Positions 32,862-43,534 are shown, numbered from the stretch's first letter. The stretch: 48,353 bases of DNA from Nitrospirota bacterium (GCA_016180645.1 JACPAV010000009.1:62001-110353); one strand, 5' to 3'. Notes: a model not told the origin generated them from the letters alone. Numbers and translations are program-made.

Positions 32862-33680
32862 CTATTTCCCCTTGGCCGGCTTCTCGCCTGCGGCCTTCCC
32901 TGCCGCCGCGGGCTTGCCCGCCGTGGCGGCCTTTCCGGCAGCCGGTGCCTTCGCCGGTGCGGCTTTCCCCGCCGCCGCCTTCTCCCCACCCTTGGCCGGC
33001 GCTTCCGCACCCGCCGTTGGAGCCGCGGCAGCCGGTGCTCCTCCCACCGCGGGCGCTCCCTCCGCGGCCACCGCCGCGACCTCTTCGGGCTTCTTGAGGG
33101 CCTCCTCTTCCTTCGGCATCAGCACGGTGACAATGGTGGGGTTCTTCCGCTCCGCCAACCTGACGCCCGCCGGAAGCGGGAGATCGGACGCATGGAGCGA
33201 GTCCCCTTTCGCCAAAGGGGTCACGTCGATCTCAATGACACCCGGTATGGCGTCCGGCCGGCATTCCACCAAAAGTTTTCGGATCGGCCATTGCATCACG
33301 CCACCGTCCGCAACCCCCACGGGCACTCCCTTCGTCTGGATCGGAATCAGCACCTCAATGGGCCGATTCTTTGGAATTTCGTAGAAATCGATGTGGACGA
33401 GGTCCCCCCAAACGGGGTCGTAGTTGATGTCCCGAATCAGCACTCGTCGCGAGGAGACCGCGCCGTTCTCGATCCGGAGCTCGATGGGATTGTGCGTGGA
33501 CACCCCTCTTTGGAGCAACATTTTCATCTCGTGGTTGGACACCGAGATCGTCGAGGGTTTCGTCTCGGGACCGTAGAGAATGGCCGGGACGAATCCCTCC
33601 CGGCGCACCTTGCGCAGGGCGCCCTTTCCGGCCTGAGCGCGGGGCTTGGCCTTTAACGCGAGGGGGACATTCGATTCCAT
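32862..33680 (-). CDS. rplY: 50S ribosomal protein L25/Ctc
   Basis: GKGALRKVRREGFVPAILYG, VHIDFY, GVPVGVADGG; Ala/Lys/Pro-rich tail; follows prs. Confidence 0.96.
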   Translation of the reverse strand: MESNVPLALKAKPRAQAGKGALRKVRREGFVPAILYGPETKPSTISVSNHEMKMLLQRGVSTHNPIELRIENGAVSSRRVLIRDINYDPVWGDLVHIDFYEIPKNRPIEVLIPIQTKGVPVGVADGGVMQWPIRKLLVECRPDAIPGVIEIDVTPLAKGDSLHASDLPLPAGVRLAERKNPTIVTVLMPKEEEALKKPEEVAAVAAEGAPAVGGAPAAAAPTAGAEAPAKGGEKAAAGKAAPAKAPAAGKAATAGKPAAAGKAAGEKPAKGK

Positions 33681-34741: not shown

Positions 34742-36031
34742 GTGAATAACAAGAGCGCAAATCGCATCCTGGGATTGATTTGCCGTGAGTGCGGAAAGTC
34801 GTACGGCGAGGCGCCCGTCCACGTTTGCGAGTTCTGCCTCGGCCCGCTCGAAGTGAAGTACGACTATAACGTCATCGCCCGCACGTTCAATCGGAAGACG
34901 ATAGAACACCGCCCCCATTCGATGTGGCGGTATCAGGAGCTCCTCCCCCTCCAGGGAGACCCCCGCGTCGGCACGTTCACGGGCTTTACCCCGCTGGTGC
35001 GGGCCCGGAATCTGGGAGACCTCCTCGGCCTATCCAACCTTTACGTCAAGAATGACACCGTGTGCGCTCCCAGCCTTTCGTTCAAGGACCGGGTGGTGTC
35101 TGTGGCGCACTCGAAAGCGATCGAATTCGGGTTCAAAGTGGTCGCCTGCGCCTCCACCGGCAACTTGGCCAATTCCGTCGCCGCGAACGCGGCCGCCGCC
35201 AAGCTCGAATGCTACGTCTTCATCCCGGCCGACCTGGAACAGGGGAAGGTCCTCGGAACGGGCATCTTCGGCGCCCGCGTCATCGGCATCCTCGGCGCGT
35301 ATGACGACGTCAACAAGCTGTGCAGCGAAATAGCCGGGCGGTACGGTTGGGCCTTCGTCAACATCAACATTCGACCCTATTATGCGGAAGGATCAAAGAC
35401 GTTTGGGCTGGAAATTGCGGAGCAACTCGGATGGCGCCTGCCGGACCATGTGATCGTGCCCATGGCGGGAGGATCGCTCATCACCAAGATCGGGAAGTCT
35501 TTCAAGGAACTCGTTGAGCTCGGCCTCGTCAAAAAACAGGCCGTCCGCATTCACGGCACACAGCCTGTGGGCTGTTCCCCCATCGTCACGGCGTTCAAAG
35601 AGGGCGCCACCTTCTTCAAGCCCGTGAAGAAGCCCGATACCATCGCCAAGTCCCTTGCCATCGGGAACCCGGCGGATGGATTCTATGCCTTGAAGACCAT
35701 GCGTGAGTCCGGGGGGGGGGCCGAGAGCGCGACCGACCCTGAGATCGTACGGGCCATCCAGGATCTGGCTCAGACCGAAGGAATTTTTGGAGAGACAGCG
35801 GCCGGGGTGACCGTGGCGGGCACGCGCAAACTCATCGAAACGGGGAAAATCGGGCGGGACGATCTCGTCGTTATCTCCGTGACGGGAAACGGTCTCAAGA
35901 CTCAGGAGGCCGTCGCCCCGGCGGTGCCCAAGCCCGTCGTCATCAAACCCTCGCTCCGCGAATTTGAGGCGCTGCTCAAGGGCGAACCCTCCGCCCCGAA
36001 ACCCATGGCAGCCCATCCCGCCGCATCCTGA
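34742..36031 (+). CDS. thrC: Threonine synthase-like PLP enzyme with N-terminal zinc ribbon
   Basis: CREC/CEFC ribbon, PSLSFKDR (PLP Lys), ASTGNLA, RPYYAEGSKT, TGNGLKT; upstream of a MoaD/ThiS-family gene. Confidence 0.9.
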   Translation: MNNKSANRILGLICRECGKSYGEAPVHVCEFCLGPLEVKYDYNVIARTFNRKTIEHRPHSMWRYQELLPLQGDPRVGTFTGFTPLVRARNLGDLLGLSNLYVKNDTVCAPSLSFKDRVVSVAHSKAIEFGFKVVACASTGNLANSVAANAAAAKLECYVFIPADLEQGKVLGTGIFGARVIGILGAYDDVNKLCSEIAGRYGWAFVNINIRPYYAEGSKTFGLEIAEQLGWRLPDHVIVPMAGGSLITKIGKSFKELVELGLVKKQAVRIHGTQPVGCSPIVTAFKEGATFFKPVKKPDTIAKSLAIGNPADGFYALKTMRESGGGAESATDPEIVRAIQDLAQTEGIFGETAAGVTVAGTRKLIETGKIGRDDLVVISVTGNGLKTQEAVAPAVPKPVVIKPSLREFEALLKGEPSAPKPMAAHPAAS

Positions 36032-36046
36032 TCGTCGAGACCACTG

Positions 36047-36559
36047 ATGGCCACCGTACGCATCCCCACGCCTCTCCGAAAGCTCACCGCGGGGAAGGAA
36101 GAGGTCATCGTGCAGGGTGCAACCCTGGCTGAGATTCTTGAAGCCTTGGAAAAGGCCCATCCGGGATTGAAAGAGCGCCTGTTCGACGACACGGGGGAGG
36201 TCCGGCGTTTTATCAACATCTTCCTCAATGATGAGGATGTCCGGTTCCTCCAGAATTTGAAAACGCCGGTTAAGGACTCCGACGAGGTCTCCATTCTTCC
36301 CGCCATCGCGGGAGGCGACGACGATCGGAGGCGTTATTACCTGACCTTCCCCCCGCAGCTCGTTCAGGAGCCCGTGCTCTACCGGCTCGGCCAGAAATTC
36401 CGCGTGGTGACGAACGTTCGGTCGGCCACAGTCTCCAGTGGAATAGGAGTTGTGGCGTTGGAGTTGGAAGGCGTGGACGACGAGATCGACCGCGCCATCG
36501 AGTACCTCCAAGGGATCGGCGTCAAGGTCGATCCGATCGAACAGAGCGTCGTCGAGTAG
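36047..36559 (+). CDS. MoaD/ThiS/CysO-type sulfur carrier fused to a C-terminal NIL domain
   Basis: VRIPTPLRKLT...RRFINIFLNDEDVRFL...VSILPAIAGG (residues 1-90), then YYLTFPPQLVQEPVLYRLG.KF.VVTNVRSA...LELEG...GVKVDPIE (NIL-like). Confidence 0.88.
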   Translation: MATVRIPTPLRKLTAGKEEVIVQGATLAEILEALEKAHPGLKERLFDDTGEVRRFINIFLNDEDVRFLQNLKTPVKDSDEVSILPAIAGGDDDRRRYYLTFPPQLVQEPVLYRLGQKFRVVTNVRSATVSSGIGVVALELEGVDDEIDRAIEYLQGIGVKVDPIEQSVVE

Positions 36560-36591
36560 AATTCGCCCTTCCGCCCGGATTCCCCGCGCCC

Positions 36592-37788
36592 ATGAAACCC
36601 ACCCGAAAGAAAGCTCGAACATCCCCTGGATTCTCGCTGGGGCTTCCTCACGGAGGCACGCTCATCTCTCGAATCGTCCAGGGGAAGGAGGCCGATTCCG
36701 TCCGCCGGCATTCTGAGAAACTGCCTCTCCTCCTCCTGAACCGGCGACAGACCTCCGATCTGGAACTCATCGCCAACGGCGGGTTCAGTCCGCTGACCGG
36801 CTTCATGGGAGAGGACGACTACCAGTCGGTCCTCAAGAACATGACTCTGGCGAACGGGAGGGTCTGGAGCCTTCCGATTGTGCTGGATGTGCCGCAGGCG
36901 TTTTTCGATAAGACCAAACTAAACTCGCCCATCGCGCTGGCGGCGCCGGAGGGAGCGCGCCCGGTGGGCCTCATGGCCGTTCAGGAGAAGTTCGTCCGGA
37001 AACTTCCGGAGGAAGCTGAAACGGCCTTCGGCACGGGGGACGCTGCGCATCCCGGGGTGAAAGCGGTTCTTGATTCCAGCGAGCACGTTCTCGCCGGGCC
37101 CGTGACCCTGTTCGAGGCGCTGCCGCATGATGACTTCAGTGCCTACCGCCTCCCTCCAGCGGAAACGCGCCGGATTTTTCAGGAACGGAAGTGGAACTCC
37201 GTGGTGGGATTCCAGACACGAAACCCCGTGCATCGCGCCCATGAGTATCTCCAGAAGTGCGCCATGGAAGTGGTGGACGGATTGTTTCTTCATCCCCTCG
37301 TCGGCGAGACCAAATCGGACGACATCCCTGCGGATGTCAGGATGCGTTGTTATGAAGTGCTGCTCGAAAAATACTACCCGGCCGGCCGTGTCTTGCTCGG
37401 CGTCAATCCCTCCTACATGCGCTATGGCGGGCCACGGGAAGCGGTTTTCCATGCCCTGCTCCGGAAGAATTTCGGGTGCACGCATTTCATCGTCGGGCGC
37501 GATCACGCCGGGGTGGGAAACTACTATGGGACATTCGATGCCCAGAATCTGCTCAAGACCATCCCCGTTGAAGCACTCGGCATCCAGCCCCTCTACTTCG
37601 ACAACACCTTCTACTGCTACGAGTGCGAGAACTTCGCCTCCGAGAAGACGTGTCCCCACGACGTTTCCCACCGGCTCGCCCTGAGCGGCACGAAGGTGAG
37701 GGAGCTTCTTCGCGCGGGCCAATCCCTCCCGCGGGAATTCACGCGTCCGGAAGTGGCGAACGTTCTACGCGGGGCGTATCAGTCCTAG
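36592..37788 (+). CDS. sat: Sulfate adenylyltransferase (ATP sulfurylase)
   Basis: PHGG, GGFSPLTGFM, FQTRNPVHRAHE, MRYGGPREA, HFIVGRDHAG, LSGTKVRE. Confidence 0.97.
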   Translation: MKPTRKKARTSPGFSLGLPHGGTLISRIVQGKEADSVRRHSEKLPLLLLNRRQTSDLELIANGGFSPLTGFMGEDDYQSVLKNMTLANGRVWSLPIVLDVPQAFFDKTKLNSPIALAAPEGARPVGLMAVQEKFVRKLPEEAETAFGTGDAAHPGVKAVLDSSEHVLAGPVTLFEALPHDDFSAYRLPPAETRRIFQERKWNSVVGFQTRNPVHRAHEYLQKCAMEVVDGLFLHPLVGETKSDDIPADVRMRCYEVLLEKYYPAGRVLLGVNPSYMRYGGPREAVFHALLRKNFGCTHFIVGRDHAGVGNYYGTFDAQNLLKTIPVEALGIQPLYFDNTFYCYECENFASEKTCPHDVSHRLALSGTKVRELLRAGQSLPREFTRPEVANVLRGAYQS

Positions 37789-40513: not shown

Positions 40514-43500
40514 CTATCTTACGAGCGAGAGGACATCCTGGAGCAGGCCGTCCGTCGTCGTAATGACTCTTGTGTTGGCTTGGAAGCCTCTTTGGTTTCT
40601 CAGGAGCTGCACGAATTCCGTGGCCAGATCCACGTTGGCCAGTTCCAGTGCCCTTGACTGGATTGTGCCCGCGACGCCGGTGCCCGGATCGTTCACCACC
40701 GGGGGCCCGGACTCGAAGGTCTCGGCCCAGAGGTTGTTTCCCAGCGTTCCGAGCCCGGTCATGTTCACGAAGTTGGCGATGGCCACCCGCGCGATTCCGA
40801 ACGTCTGGCCGTTAGTGTAGAGACCGTTCACCGTTCCATCCCGAGCGACGGCCACGCGAAGAAGCGTGCCGGGGGCGTAGCCGTCCTGGGCCATCGAATT
40901 CACGATGGCCTCGGCGTTGTATTGGCTGGAGAGGTCGACGCCCGAACCACCCGACTGTGTGGTCGTGCCGAACGAGAACTTGATGCTCTGGTCCGGCTTG
41001 GATCCCGAATCGAAATCGAAATCGGTGTAGTCGGAGAAGAGGCCGTCCAGGAAACCGTACTTGCTCTCTCCGACGCTGGTGGTTTCGGGGTTCTCGGGAT
41101 TCGTCGCATCAAACAGCTTCCCTTCGTCCGAGAACTTGAGGATTCCCGCCGCTTCGATTTCGAGTCCCGTTCCCACCGCGTATCGGCTGATCAGGGAGTT
41201 GGAGGCGTTGGGCGTAACCCCGGAAGTGGGCGCCGCGAGCAACACCGATGCATTCCCGAGGCCGTTGTTGTCATTCGAATCCGTCGTGTCGAATCCGAAC
41301 AGATCGGCAAAGCCGGCGTCCGTGCGATTCCCAGTCGAATCGGCGTTCACCCCGTCGAAGTCGAAAGCGATCGGCCGGGTGGTGCTGGTGTTGGTGAGGG
41401 TGAATTTCCCGGTGGTCGAGCTGTAGGTTACGGTCACGCTGGCCGCGCTGTTGGCTTCCGTCAGCTTCGACTGGAGGTGGGCCGCCAGCTCGGACCCCGT
41501 GTACACACCCGTGGTCAAATCGACCTTCTGGAAGGTATCACCGGAGGCAAAAGACTCGCCGGAGTCGGCCCCTTCGATCGAAAAGAGGAGTGTGTTGTTG
41601 GTGTCATTCACGGTGAATCTCGACACGTCGCTCTGATCCACCCCGGCAAACCATTCCCACCGTCGCACCTCCAAGGTCCGGCCGGTGTAGCTGTCCGTCA
41701 CTACTTCTTTGGAGTCTTTCCGGAAATGCAGCTCCACCACGCGGTTGTTGCCCAAGCTGTCGTAGGCCACGAACGACGTAGAGAAGTTCGCGGTATTGGC
41801 GGCGTCCCGGGGGTCAAACCGCCCGGCCACTTCATCGCTCACCCGCACCTCGCCGGGATCCAGATCGTCGGCGATCTGGTTCACCGTCGAACCGGCCGCC
41901 AGAGACATCGGCCGGGGACCTCCCGCCGTGTCGGTCACAAAGCCGATCATCCGGGCGAATTCGAACGCGCGCCCGACAGCCAGAGTGCCGTTCGTGGAAC
42001 TTCGCGCCACGGACCCCGCGGCCATCGACAGATCGGCCGAAGTCCTCGTGAAACCGAAGAGCGCAGGCACCATTTCGTCGGTCTTGAGGATTGACCCGGC
42101 GCCCGCGGTGGTGTTGTAGTTCCAATCCAGAACGATGCTTCCGCCGCTTCCGTTCGCGTTTCTGAACACGAAATCCCGCGCGCCCTCATCGTAGGTCACT
42201 TGGAACTGATTCGCGCCCGTCAACCCCGAGCCGCGAATGGCGGTCTGGAGCGCCGCGGCCAGTTCGTTCGGCGTGTAGGTGCCGGCAGCGATGTTGACGC
42301 GCGTGTTCGTCGTCCCCTGCCGGAGCACGAGACCGCTGTTTAGAGACGATTCAATTCTCGTCCGGTAGGTCTGGATATCGATGCCGTTGAAAGGGGCCGT
42401 GCTGCTGGAGTTGGTCGTCCCCACATTGAAGCTCGCGTTGGAGCTGAAGCCCAGGATATTTTCGGCGGTCGTCCGCGGGGCGGTGAAGCCCATCCTGACG
42501 AAGGTTGTCCCCGCCCCGTAGCTATCCAACTTCAAAGAGAACTTTCCGGTGCTGCCGCTGAACGTCACCGACCACGCGCCTCCAACCTGCGCTTCTAATC
42601 GTTGCTCGATGTGGGTGGCCAGGGAGCTGGCGGTGTAGCTGCTGGTCGATCCGCCCGGATTGAGCGAGAGGGTCACGCTGCTCGTGATCGCTCCCGTCGT
42701 CGTGGAACCGATGCCGATGCTCACCATGTTGTTGATACCGGGAGTAACGGAGAAAGAGTACAAGTTCGCGTCCGTGGAGTTCAGCTTCACACTGAAACGG
42801 CCGAGTTCATTGTCGTAGGTGACGGAGAAATCGTGAACAATCCCTGAAGATTGGCCCGCCGATTCGAGAGCGGCCTCGAGCGTGGTGGCAAGCGTGGCTC
42901 CCGTGTAGACGCCCGGATTGATCGTGGCCGTCAAGGTCTTGTAGACATCGGACGGATAACCCACCATCAACTGGACGCGATCATTTTCACCGGAGACCAC
43001 GTTGAAGCCCTTCACTTCGGCGGTCGAATCGAGGTTCACCCCGGCCTTTACTTCCGTGGTCGCCTTGGGCGCGAGTTGCCACTTGTCAATCTGGATGTCC
43101 TTCGCCACACCGGTCGACTTGTTGGTCGTGGCGTTCACGCCGTACCCCTGAAGACGGTATCCGTTCGTATCGAGCAGGTATCCGCTCTTGTCAAAACGGA
43201 ACTGACCCGCGCGCGTGTAGAAGGTCCCGTCGCCGCCGGTCGTTTTCTTTACCATGAAGAATCCGTTCCCGGCGATCGCCAGATCGGTATCGGTCTGGGT
43301 GTTTTCAAAACTTCCCTGGCTGAACTCATTGACCACTTTGGCAATGTTCACCCCGCGGCCCGTGCCGAAAATATTGTCGAACCGGAAATCGGCGAGCAGG
43401 TCTTCGAATTGAACCTGGGATCTCTTGAATCCCGCGGTGTTGACGTTCGCGATGTTGTTCGAGACCACCGAGAGGGCCCGGCTGTATGTGGATAGGGCCG

Positions 43501-43534
43501 TCGTCCCTATGAAAAACGCAGGAATACCAGTCAT
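40514..43534 (-). CDS. flgE: Flagellar hook protein FlgE, unusually large (1006 aa)
   Basis: SNNIANVNTAGFK, DLAIAGNGFF, YTRAGQF, AYDSLG, QDGYAPG, LELANVDLATEF...QRGFQAN; strong SD AGGAGGTG; follows flgD. Confidence 0.95.
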   Translation of the reverse strand: MTGIPAFFIGTTALSTYSRALSVVSNNIANVNTAGFKRSQVQFEDLLADFRFDNIFGTGRGVNIAKVVNEFSQGSFENTQTDTDLAIAGNGFFMVKKTTGGDGTFYTRAGQFRFDKSGYLLDTNGYRLQGYGVNATTNKSTGVAKDIQIDKWQLAPKATTEVKAGVNLDSTAEVKGFNVVSGENDRVQLMVGYPSDVYKTLTATINPGVYTGATLATTLEAALESAGQSSGIVHDFSVTYDNELGRFSVKLNSTDANLYSFSVTPGINNMVSIGIGSTTTGAITSSVTLSLNPGGSTSSYTASSLATHIEQRLEAQVGGAWSVTFSGSTGKFSLKLDSYGAGTTFVRMGFTAPRTTAENILGFSSNASFNVGTTNSSSTAPFNGIDIQTYRTRIESSLNSGLVLRQGTTNTRVNIAAGTYTPNELAAALQTAIRGSGLTGANQFQVTYDEGARDFVFRNANGSGGSIVLDWNYNTTAGAGSILKTDEMVPALFGFTRTSADLSMAAGSVARSSTNGTLAVGRAFEFARMIGFVTDTAGGPRPMSLAAGSTVNQIADDLDPGEVRVSDEVAGRFDPRDAANTANFSTSFVAYDSLGNNRVVELHFRKDSKEVVTDSYTGRTLEVRRWEWFAGVDQSDVSRFTVNDTNNTLLFSIEGADSGESFASGDTFQKVDLTTGVYTGSELAAHLQSKLTEANSAASVTVTYSSTTGKFTLTNTSTTRPIAFDFDGVNADSTGNRTDAGFADLFGFDTTDSNDNNGLGNASVLLAAPTSGVTPNASNSLISRYAVGTGLEIEAAGILKFSDEGKLFDATNPENPETTSVGESKYGFLDGLFSDYTDFDFDSGSKPDQSIKFSFGTTTQSGGSGVDLSSQYNAEAIVNSMAQDGYAPGTLLRVAVARDGTVNGLYTNGQTFGIARVAIANFVNMTGLGTLGNNLWAETFESGPPVVNDPGTGVAGTIQSRALELANVDLATEFVQLLRNQRGFQANTRVITTTDGLLQDVLSLVR

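Follow-up and report, generated by a model that had tools for sequence, protein, structure and literature searches.

The 48,353-nucleotide stretch of Nitrospirota bacterium DNA analysed here (GCA_016180645.1 JACPAV010000009.1:62001-110353, referred to as the window) carries on its + strand an operon of three genes, which encode in order a MetM-like relative of threonine synthase, a sulfur carrier fused to a NIL domain, and the ATP sulfurylase Sat, with gaps of 15 and 32 nucleotides between them. The MetM-like gene (34742..36031, GTG start) encodes a pyridoxal phosphate (PLP) enzyme of the ThrC family of 429 amino acids that is a candidate homocysteine synthase (PF00291, 220 bits; TIGR00260, 256.8 bits). 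The carrier-NIL gene (36047..36559) encodes 170 residues, comprising a ubiquitin-fold sulfur-carrier domain of the CysO/MetO type (residues 1–90, 36047..36316), a six-residue linker of sequence DDDRRR (36317..36334) and the NIL domain (residues 97–170, 36335..36556). The product of the last gene (36592..37788) matches PF01747 with 319.5 bits, PF14306 (PUA_2) with 161.8 bits and NF003166 with 522 bits against a cut-off of 387; the Pfam and NCBI-type profile matches thus bear out a preliminary description of the locus that had placed a PLP enzyme and an ATP sulfurylase on either side of the fusion gene. The order of the three genes is identical in the one same-family genome of the comparison (locus L116). 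The intergenic region upstream of the MetM-like gene measures 88 nucleotides, and promoter and terminator scans of the locus gave nothing useful. No S-adenosylmethionine (SAM) riboswitch was detected upstream of the operon, a search of the whole window with Rfam at gathering thresholds having returned two tRNAs only.

The DNA at 36308-36325 reads gcg gga ggc gac gac gat, so that Gly 89 and Gly 90 (36311..36316), the predicted site of cleavage and activation, run straight into the DDDRRR linker with no stop codon. In the 170-residue product the ThiS family PF02597 matches residues 4–90 with 63 bits (cut-off 22.5) and the NIL family PF09383 matches residues 95–161 with 46.4 bits (cut-off 24). 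This confirms the earlier reading of the gene, in which the GG was followed without interruption by DDDRRR and a NIL-like domain. As had been proposed in the same description, the junction was checked for a missed stop codon, and contigs assembled separately from four out of four public runs showed no differences and no gaps between 35600 and 37000; the four runs come from one study and may be the source of this DNA. Other MoaD-NIL fusions, which it had also recommended seeking, were found in number. A homologue search of 5.8 billion proteins gave 2246 matches at E≤1e-3, and the best 120 of these, from which the alignment was built, are all 167–189 residues long and all contain both the ThiS and the NIL domain (120/120), under the source labels MoaD family protein or molybdopterin synthase sulfur carrier. 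Within these best 120 fused homologues G89 and G90 are invariant (120/120), the linker is six residues long in 102 with its last three residues basic, and the residue following the GG is Ser in 53 and Ala in 42. Among 401 sampled genomes, drawn mostly from families other than that of the window, 14 encode an uninterrupted carrier-NIL fusion, and in two more the carrier and the NIL lie in one frame with a single stop after GGK between them. The fusion of the same-family genome is 72% identical to that of the window. The carrier-NIL fusion is real and conserved, and constitutes a family of proteins. Literature searches for a published ThiS/MoaD-NIL fusion, or for a NIL domain in thiocarboxylate pathways, gave nothing relevant; operons of the ThiS/MoaD-JAB-E1 type that include ATP sulfurylase are known from Iyer et al. 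2006 (PMC1779556), a paper in which a term search found neither NIL nor threonine synthase.

An AlphaFold2 model calculated with the 120-sequence alignment features two confident domains (mean predicted local distance difference test score, pLDDT, of 87), with a predicted template modelling score (pTM) of 0.50 and a pLDDT below 50 for residues 87–90, so that in the model the GG junction is flexible and exposed and the domains adopt no fixed packing. The N-terminal domain superimposes in Foldseek on CysO (4n6e_B and 3dwg_C) with a TM-score on the target of 0.92–0.93. These are also its matches in the PDB by sequence (4n6e_B, E 2.9e-21; 3dwg_C from Mycobacterium tuberculosis, E 2e-20), and the CysO proteins, at 48–49% identity, are its closest solved relatives. 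A role as the MoaD subunit of molybdopterin synthase was considered and rejected, as the carrier scores 17 bits against TIGR01682 (moaD; cut-off 66) and the genome owns a dedicated MoaD of 96 residues, ending ..PPVSGG-stop, immediately upstream of MoaE in a mobA-moaD-moaE-moaC/B cluster. The genome also contains ThiS, together with ThiG and ThiO. The score of 65.3 against NF041918 (SAMP1) exceeds the cut-off of 60, so annotation pipelines may call the carrier SAMP1; the gene context argues for a role as a sulfur carrier over lysine conjugation of the archaeal SAMP1 type.

In this carrier family the GG is often buried, since 37 of 76 carrier open reading frames (ORFs) from related loci extend beyond it, 13 by 1–5 residues, 14 into an E1 and 10 into another fusion partner, while 39 end in GG-stop. 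MoaD-MoeZ fusions, in which the carrier is joined via GG to the N-terminus of its own E1, are a further common means of burying the GG, and are found in loci of Syntrophobacterales and Dehalococcoidia (L026:5950-7056, L037:3208-4275, L040:5989-7056, L052, L056, L057, L060, L062, L064, L066, L068 and L069); a JAMM gene is present in every one of these but L066 and L069. Carriers of Anaerolineales (L047:6001-6750, L048:6001-6750 and L050:1952-2704) have a region of about 159 residues past the GG, with JAMM and E1 genes adjoining. On contig C57 of the window's own genome (L089:4137-5111), the gene immediately upstream of that for a TtuA-like PP-loop tRNA thiolase encodes a 324-residue protein that joins a ThiS fold (residues 4–63) to UPF0758_N and a JAB domain of the RadC-like kind. 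Here a further carrier would have its C-terminus buried, in this case by linkage to a putative peptidase of its own.

The MetM-like enzyme begins with a zinc-ribbon of four cysteines (C14, C17, C29 and C32; 34781..34837). In an alignment of 30 MetM-like proteins C14, C17 and C29 are invariant in 30/30 and C32 is the consensus residue, and residues 7–37 give weak Pfam matches to zf-ChsH2 and NinF. The SFKDR motif residues S113, K115, D116 and R117 are likewise invariant in all 30. The canonical ThrC of the genome, a protein of 352 residues encoded on contig C32, has no zinc-ribbon and aligns only from about residue 57 onward; of the two ThrC-family genes it is also the better scoring, with 310 bits versus 258 bits for the MetM-like gene. 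The 30 MetM-like sequences are split from two canonical ThrCs by a long branch with 100% support in the Shimodaira-Hasegawa-like approximate likelihood ratio test (SH-aLRT). The MetM-like enzyme reaches 293 bits against NF006050, below its cut-off of 303, but its TIGR00260 (thrC) score does exceed the cut-off, and pipelines name it threonine synthase for this reason. The earlier suggestion that this ThrC-like enzyme may not make threonine gains support, at the level of sequence, from its placement in a distinct MetM-type paralogue group and from the separate, better-scoring ThrC.

The NIL domain is orthologous to the stand-alone NILs of MetM operons: it is 36–53% identical to 19 of them, and these begin at the point where the linker of the fused forms stops, opening with a lead-in about as long as that linker. 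The NIL profile matches the C2 domains of MetN (3dhx_A, E 1.2e-9), and the C-terminal domain of the model superimposes in Foldseek on the MetN C2 domains of 3tui, 3tuz, 3dhw and 3dhx. In a profile alignment to 3dhw_C, the Asn of the motif 'tniR' (N123, 36413..36415) occupies the column of Asn 295 in Escherichia coli MetN, a position at which PDB 6cvl_C has Ala. In MetN, Asn 295 is reported to be needed for methionine trans-inhibition. N123 is conserved in at least 90% of the fused forms and R125 is invariant in NIL alignment A2. No Cys is conserved in the alignments of either the fused or the stand-alone NILs, which makes a role in persulfide relay unlikely.

A search with the NIL profile of 1.84 billion cluster representatives gave 1630 proteins at E≤1e-3, and the 31 longest among the best 150 were scanned with Pfam. 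Thirteen of the 31 are NIL-NIL tandems, eight are ThiS-NIL fusions and two are JAMM-NIL fusions (P0159 and P0229). Another, a fragment, consists of the C-terminus of a MetM-like protein (57% identical to the window's enzyme), an Arg/Gly-rich stretch and a NIL, and may be a read-through gene call; the remainder are NILs with unassigned extensions, or odd chimeras. P0172, made up of a PALP fragment, a ThiS fragment and a NIL, was left out of the counts as an apparent chimera of gene calling, and an apparent NIL fusion of 619 residues in genome G314 proved to be a spurious overlapping ORF. Fused and duplicated forms also occur inside MetM operons, as a JAMM-NIL fusion of 253 residues (L160:5820-6581, genome G131), as a NIL-NIL tandem of 183 residues (L162:7383-7934, genome G237) and as two separate NIL paralogues on either side of the E1 gene (L161:7623-8985). 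Prediction of a complex between residues 1–400 of the MetM-like enzyme and the NIL gave a score of 0.01 versus a mark of 0.32, in a run made without controls.

In order to place the fusion in context, 68 carrier loci were collected from species-representative genomes with peptide patterns that favoured unfused carriers, no fused form being among the matches listed; the contexts of fused forms were taken from a separate genome search, which yielded 13 loci in other genomes. A MetM-like ThrC paralogue lies beside a carrier of the window's type in 38 of the 68 loci, and 19 of these 38 also have a stand-alone NIL of about 80 residues. In such split orthologues the MoaD stops right at the GG and a separate NIL gene stands beside the same ThrC paralogue, in the order MetM-MoaD-NIL in Verrucomicrobiota, MetM-NIL-MoaD in Chloroflexota and MetM-NIL-JAMM-E1-(MoaD-E1 fusion) in Syntrophobacterales. 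Any NIL was found in just one of the 30 carrier loci without a MetM-like gene, as a protein of 136 residues 5 kb away. A MetM-like gene is adjacent in all 13 fused-form loci. Their clusters include a JAMM gene in eight (of the other five, two are truncated contigs and one has a doubtful match only), an E1 gene in eight, a second PALP-fold enzyme of about 310 residues in nine and Sat in two, and the JAMM gene is directly upstream of the fusion in five (L117, L119, L121, L150 and L151).

The MetM-like gene and the NIL also occur together across the 401 sampled genomes, the counts from which include related and hence not independent genomes. A MetM-like gene (E≤1e-90) is present in 72. A profile of 20 NILs matches 125 of the 401 at E≤1e-8, many of the matches being about 140 residues long, the size of NIL-ferredoxins. 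Matches of at least 85 bits, a threshold that was set after the scores had been seen and with a profile made from MetM-linked NILs, are found in 44 genomes, all of them within the 72; the other 329, which lack a MetM-like gene, have no such match. A further seven of the MetM-bearing genomes encode a NIL that scores lower and lies no more than 4 kb from the MetM-like gene, for a total of 51 out of 72. In the complete genome G299 a single operon (L154:4967-9367) contains genes for E1, JAMM, the MetM-like enzyme, MoaD (GGK-stop), NIL and a canonical ThrC, so that both consumers of O-phosphohomoserine are encoded together.

The window's own genome, 97% complete by marker genes, was inventoried for the remaining components of a thiocarboxylate pathway. 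The preliminary description had suggested a search for moeB and JAMM genes, and both types are present, unlinked to the operon. One Mec-type Prok-JAB protein of 142 residues (81 bits) with an intact HxHx7Sx2D motif is encoded on contig C32; it scores 94–100 bits against the JAMMs of MetM operons (L026, L028, L037, L040 and L154) and 31–72 bits against others. The single rhodanese-ThiF E1, a MoeZ-like protein of 390 residues on contig C47, has a CQGGVRS loop and two CxxC motifs. MetH and MetE are both present. In the same genome there was no real match to PF01053, the family of MetY/MetB-type enzymes (best 29.9 bits), and neither HcyBio/DUF39 nor MetX was found; nor was a second NIL, so that the fusion holds the only one. 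With two ThrC-family enzymes and no canonical ThrB found, an alternative homoserine kinase is implied.

We consider it probable, on the basis of these comparisons, that the operon serves homocysteine synthesis of the MetM/MetO thiocarboxylate type, that the carrier is made as a pro-protein cut after the GG, and that the NIL is an accessory of the pathway. Since the GG is internal, the fusion would need processing to expose a C-terminal GG. Cleavage after Gly 90 by the Mec-type JAMM of contig C32 would leave a carrier of 90 residues whose Gly-Gly carboxylate is free, and a NIL of about 80 residues equivalent to the stand-alone NILs. The MoeZ-like E1 of contig C47 would then adenylate and thiocarboxylate the carrier with sulfur drawn from sulfate assimilation, the first step of which is catalysed by ATP sulfurylase, as encoded in the operon. 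The MetM-like enzyme would combine O-phosphohomoserine and the carrier thiocarboxylate into a carrier-homocysteine adduct, from which the JAMM would release homocysteine by hydrolysis, for conversion into methionine by MetH or MetE. These steps, from cleavage and thiocarboxylation to the activity of the enzyme, we infer by modelling on the MetM/MetO/Mec/MoeZ scheme, as it is set out in the GapMind 2026 preprint (Appendix 4), and on the precedent of MoaX, discussed below. A pro-protein requiring a cut after the GG, with a JAMM as the likely protease, had been foreseen in the preliminary description and agrees with the invariant GG, the GG-stop ends of the split orthologues and the JAMM gene in 8 of 13 fused-form operons. 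That description had further proposed a carrier-dependent pathway to cysteine or homocysteine; by comparison with known systems the carrier dependence appears to stand, and the product can be narrowed to homocysteine, probably formed from O-phosphohomoserine by the published MetM/MetO route.

The fusion itself would chiefly secure production of the NIL and the carrier at a ratio of 1:1. As most NILs are free-standing, what the NIL does probably does not depend on the fusion, whose purpose would be co-production or co-localisation. The most fitting reading of the NIL is that of an ACT-like module for a small ligand, specific to the MetM/MetO-type pathway. The tandem forms and the homology to MetN suggest that it works as a dimer, and by analogy with MetN its most likely ligand in that state is methionine or a metabolite related to it, with feedback on the pathway. 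Its fusion to the carrier in some genomes and to the JAMM in others would point to the peptidase step.

The system closest in design is the MetM/MetO route of Streptomyces albulus from O-phospho-L-homoserine to homocysteine (Hasebe et al. 2024, Appl Environ Microbiol 90:e01247-24, as cited in the GapMind 2026 preprint and in PMC12172450). In that route a PLP enzyme homologous to ThrC and routinely mis-named threonine synthase adjoins a small carrier of ThiS/MoaD fold, as in the window, and a Mec-type JAMM and a MoeZ-type E1 are needed, for both of which the window's genome has a candidate. The window differs from that route in that its carrier is fused to a NIL, which the citing descriptions of the S. 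albulus pathway, so far as they go, do not list; in lacking the SAM riboswitch that is reported upstream of S. albulus metM (PMC12172450); and in having its JAMM and E1 genes unlinked and Sat inside the operon. The CysO/CysM/Mec+/MoeZ system of M. tuberculosis (PDB 3dwg and 3dwm) shares the logic of thiocarboxylation by an E1 and release by a JAMM, and its carrier is 48% identical to that of the window with a TM-score of 0.93. Unlike in that system, the partner enzyme here is a ThrC paralogue and not CysM, and a whole domain follows the carrier's GG. A carrier of MoaD fold joined beyond its GG to a functional partner is also seen in MoaX, the MoaD-MoaE fusion of M. tuberculosis. According to PMC4326299, MoaX is cut at GG-Ser, between Gly 82 and Ser 83, both products are functional and an uncleavable form is inactive; that paper does not identify the protease. 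The partner in MoaX is MoaE, of molybdenum cofactor synthesis, and not a small NIL associated with methionine metabolism.

The NIL of the window shares its Pfam family and fold with the C2 domain of MetN (PDB 3dhw, 3dhx, 3tui, 3tuz and 6cvl) and keeps the Asn at the column of N295, but it is not attached to an ATP-binding cassette ATPase, and the invariant Arg of its subfamily, two positions after that Asn, is absent from MetN. The HcyS/HcyD/HcyF/MetY system of Wolinella succinogenes (Krishnamoorthy and Begley 2011, listed as reference 34 in PMC5764234) also leads to homocysteine by way of a protein thiocarboxylate, and its JAMM-type protease is reported to remove a residue that follows the carrier's GG. 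That system uses O-acetylhomoserine and MetY, a member of PF01053, of which the window's genome showed no real match, and the extension is a single residue, in contrast to the entire domain that follows the GG here. Another NIL dedicated to a homocysteine-forming pathway is found in the NIL-ferredoxin proteins MA1822 and DvMF_0262, which are genetically required in the DUF39 pathway acting on aspartate semialdehyde (PMC5764234); unlike these, the NIL of the window has no Fe-S domain, and no DUF39 was found in its genome. A MoaD fold with an internal GG and a second alpha/beta domain has also been solved in PDB 1v8c, a 'MoaD related protein' of 168 residues from Thermus thermophilus HB8 that originates from structural genomics. 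The whole 170-residue chain aligns to 1v8c in Foldseek over 172 columns with 27% identity, and the sequence match passes the GG into an FPPxL motif. The C-terminal domain of 1v8c, unlike the NIL of the window, is missed by the NIL profile, and the Thermus control genome gave no Pfam NIL match; 1v8c may be a divergent relative of the carrier-NIL fusion.

The alternative that survives best, though we regard it as unlikely, is that the fusion is a ligand-gated pro-protein, in which the NIL caps the GG and methionine bound to it blocks or permits the JAMM cut, with feedback exerted at the level of carrier maturation. The homology of the NIL to the methionine-binding C2 domain of MetN and the retained Asn at the N295 column would suit such a mechanism, as would the occurrence of the NIL fused to the JAMM itself and the position of the JAMM gene, which immediately precedes the fusion in 5 of 13 fused-form operons. 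Weighing against it are the model, in which the NIL has no fixed packing on the carrier and the GG is flexible, and the distribution of the two forms: 14 genomes carry the fusion as opposed to 51 with a NIL of the subfamily, or a lower-scoring NIL within 4 kb of a MetM-like gene. As the NIL is stand-alone in most genomes that have it, gating can hardly be its core role, and the cleavage gated by an amino-acid ligand that the preliminary description proposed is conceivable for the fused forms only.

Somewhat less probable again is a carrier that is shared or mainly CysO-like, supplying sulfur to a CysM-type O-phosphoserine sulfhydrylase for cysteine synthesis, with homocysteine a secondary product or none at all. 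The CysO proteins are indeed its closest solved relatives, Sat in the operon suits general sulfur assimilation, and the second PALP-fold enzyme of 9 of the 13 fused-form operons lies beside the JAMM. Yet the neighbour of the carrier is the MetM-like ThrC paralogue in all 13, the NIL follows the MetM-like gene (19/38) and not CysO-type loci (1/30), the window operon has no CysM-like gene, and the genome shows no other recognisable homocysteine route. It is improbable that the fusion is never cleaved, its beta-grasp part being of use only for regulation or as an adaptor, and that the ThrC-like enzyme is an ordinary, redundant threonine synthase. The TIGR00260 score above cut-off would be consistent with such an enzyme, as would the threonine synthase and deaminase activity in vitro of a MetM homologue from Microcystis (PMC12172450), but the GG is invariant in the best 120 homologues and split forms end in GG-stop, JAMM and E1 genes belong to the same operons, a better-scoring canonical ThrC is already present in the genome, and a long, fully supported branch separates the MetM-like clade from ThrC. 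An artefact, be it the assembly error or one-off stop loss that the preliminary description had allowed for or a functionless, lineage-specific loss of a stop codon, can for practical purposes be dismissed: a single in-frame stop can be all that separates fused from split forms, but the four assemblies are identical, the same-family genome and 14 sampled genomes carry the fusion, and the best 120 homologues are all fused, with linker features in common.

Several observations weigh against homocysteine synthesis of the MetM/MetO type with a cleaved carrier and an accessory NIL, or against parts of it. The residue after the GG is Asp in the window protein, in place of the Ser or Ala of 95 of 120 homologues, so that recognition by the protease could differ. 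The JAMM and E1 genes are unlinked to the operon and are assigned by similarity alone. No canonical homoserine kinase was found in the genome (TIGR00191, best 55.7 bits versus a cut-off of 168), and a source of O-phosphohomoserine is deduced from the presence of ThrC. The likeness to MetM/MetO of S. albulus is by description and not by sequence comparison; an indirect link is provided by an Actinomycetes metagenome-assembled genome, locus L043 of which has the same MetM-like/MoaD pair. The cyanobacterial homologue from Microcystis, according to PMC12172450, did not raise methionine. The NIL is not obligatory, as 21 of the 72 MetM-bearing genomes have no linked or high-scoring one, and the 85-bit count that ties it to the MetM-like gene depends on the threshold and profile noted above. 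The fused and split states require five changes on the tree of 30 MetM-like proteins, but the well-supported branches force only one, and repeated independent fusion is for this reason not established.

Further genes were noted by translation only elsewhere in the window. At 40514-43534 on the - strand an ORF of 1006 residues resembles flagellar hook/rod proteins at both its N- and its C-terminus, with a very long part rich in Thr, Ser and Gly between them, and at 32862-33680, also on the - strand, an ORF for an L25/Ctc-like ribosomal protein has an Ala/Lys/Gly-rich C-terminal tail of about 70 residues. On contig C20 of the same genome (L091:2392-6842), four consecutive genes encode Prok-E2_D, JAB, an E1-like ThiF and a 620-residue HATPase_c_3 protein; this cluster resembles a bacterial operon for ubiquitin-like conjugation or of a defence type, with no apparent relation to the sulfur carriers.

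The MetM/MetO route was first reported as late as 2024, and threonine synthase is the name that nearly all annotations give to its enzyme. With a MetM-like gene in 72 of 401 genomes, this mis-annotation hides the sole visible homocysteine route in many uncultured bacteria, including that of the window. The NIL appears to be an undescribed extra part of this recently found pathway: it tracks the MetM-like enzyme across lineages, fused to the carrier, to the peptidase or to itself, a pattern to be expected of a regulatory part that belongs to this pathway and has been passed over in published accounts of it. More speculatively, and with only a modest chance of being right, the NIL could be a third MetM/MetO component that acts as a metabolite-responsive dimerisation module at the JAMM step; whether fused to the carrier, fused to the peptidase or free, it would let methionine influence the maturation of the carrier as well as the release of homocysteine. 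If true, this would be a protein-level feedback switch on bacterial ubiquitin-like processing, in place of the SAM riboswitch of other lineages. With one polypeptide and a defined predicted cut site, the carrier-NIL fusion offers a simple handle on NIL function, and the system could serve as a model for the regulated processing of ubiquitin-like precursors in bacteria.

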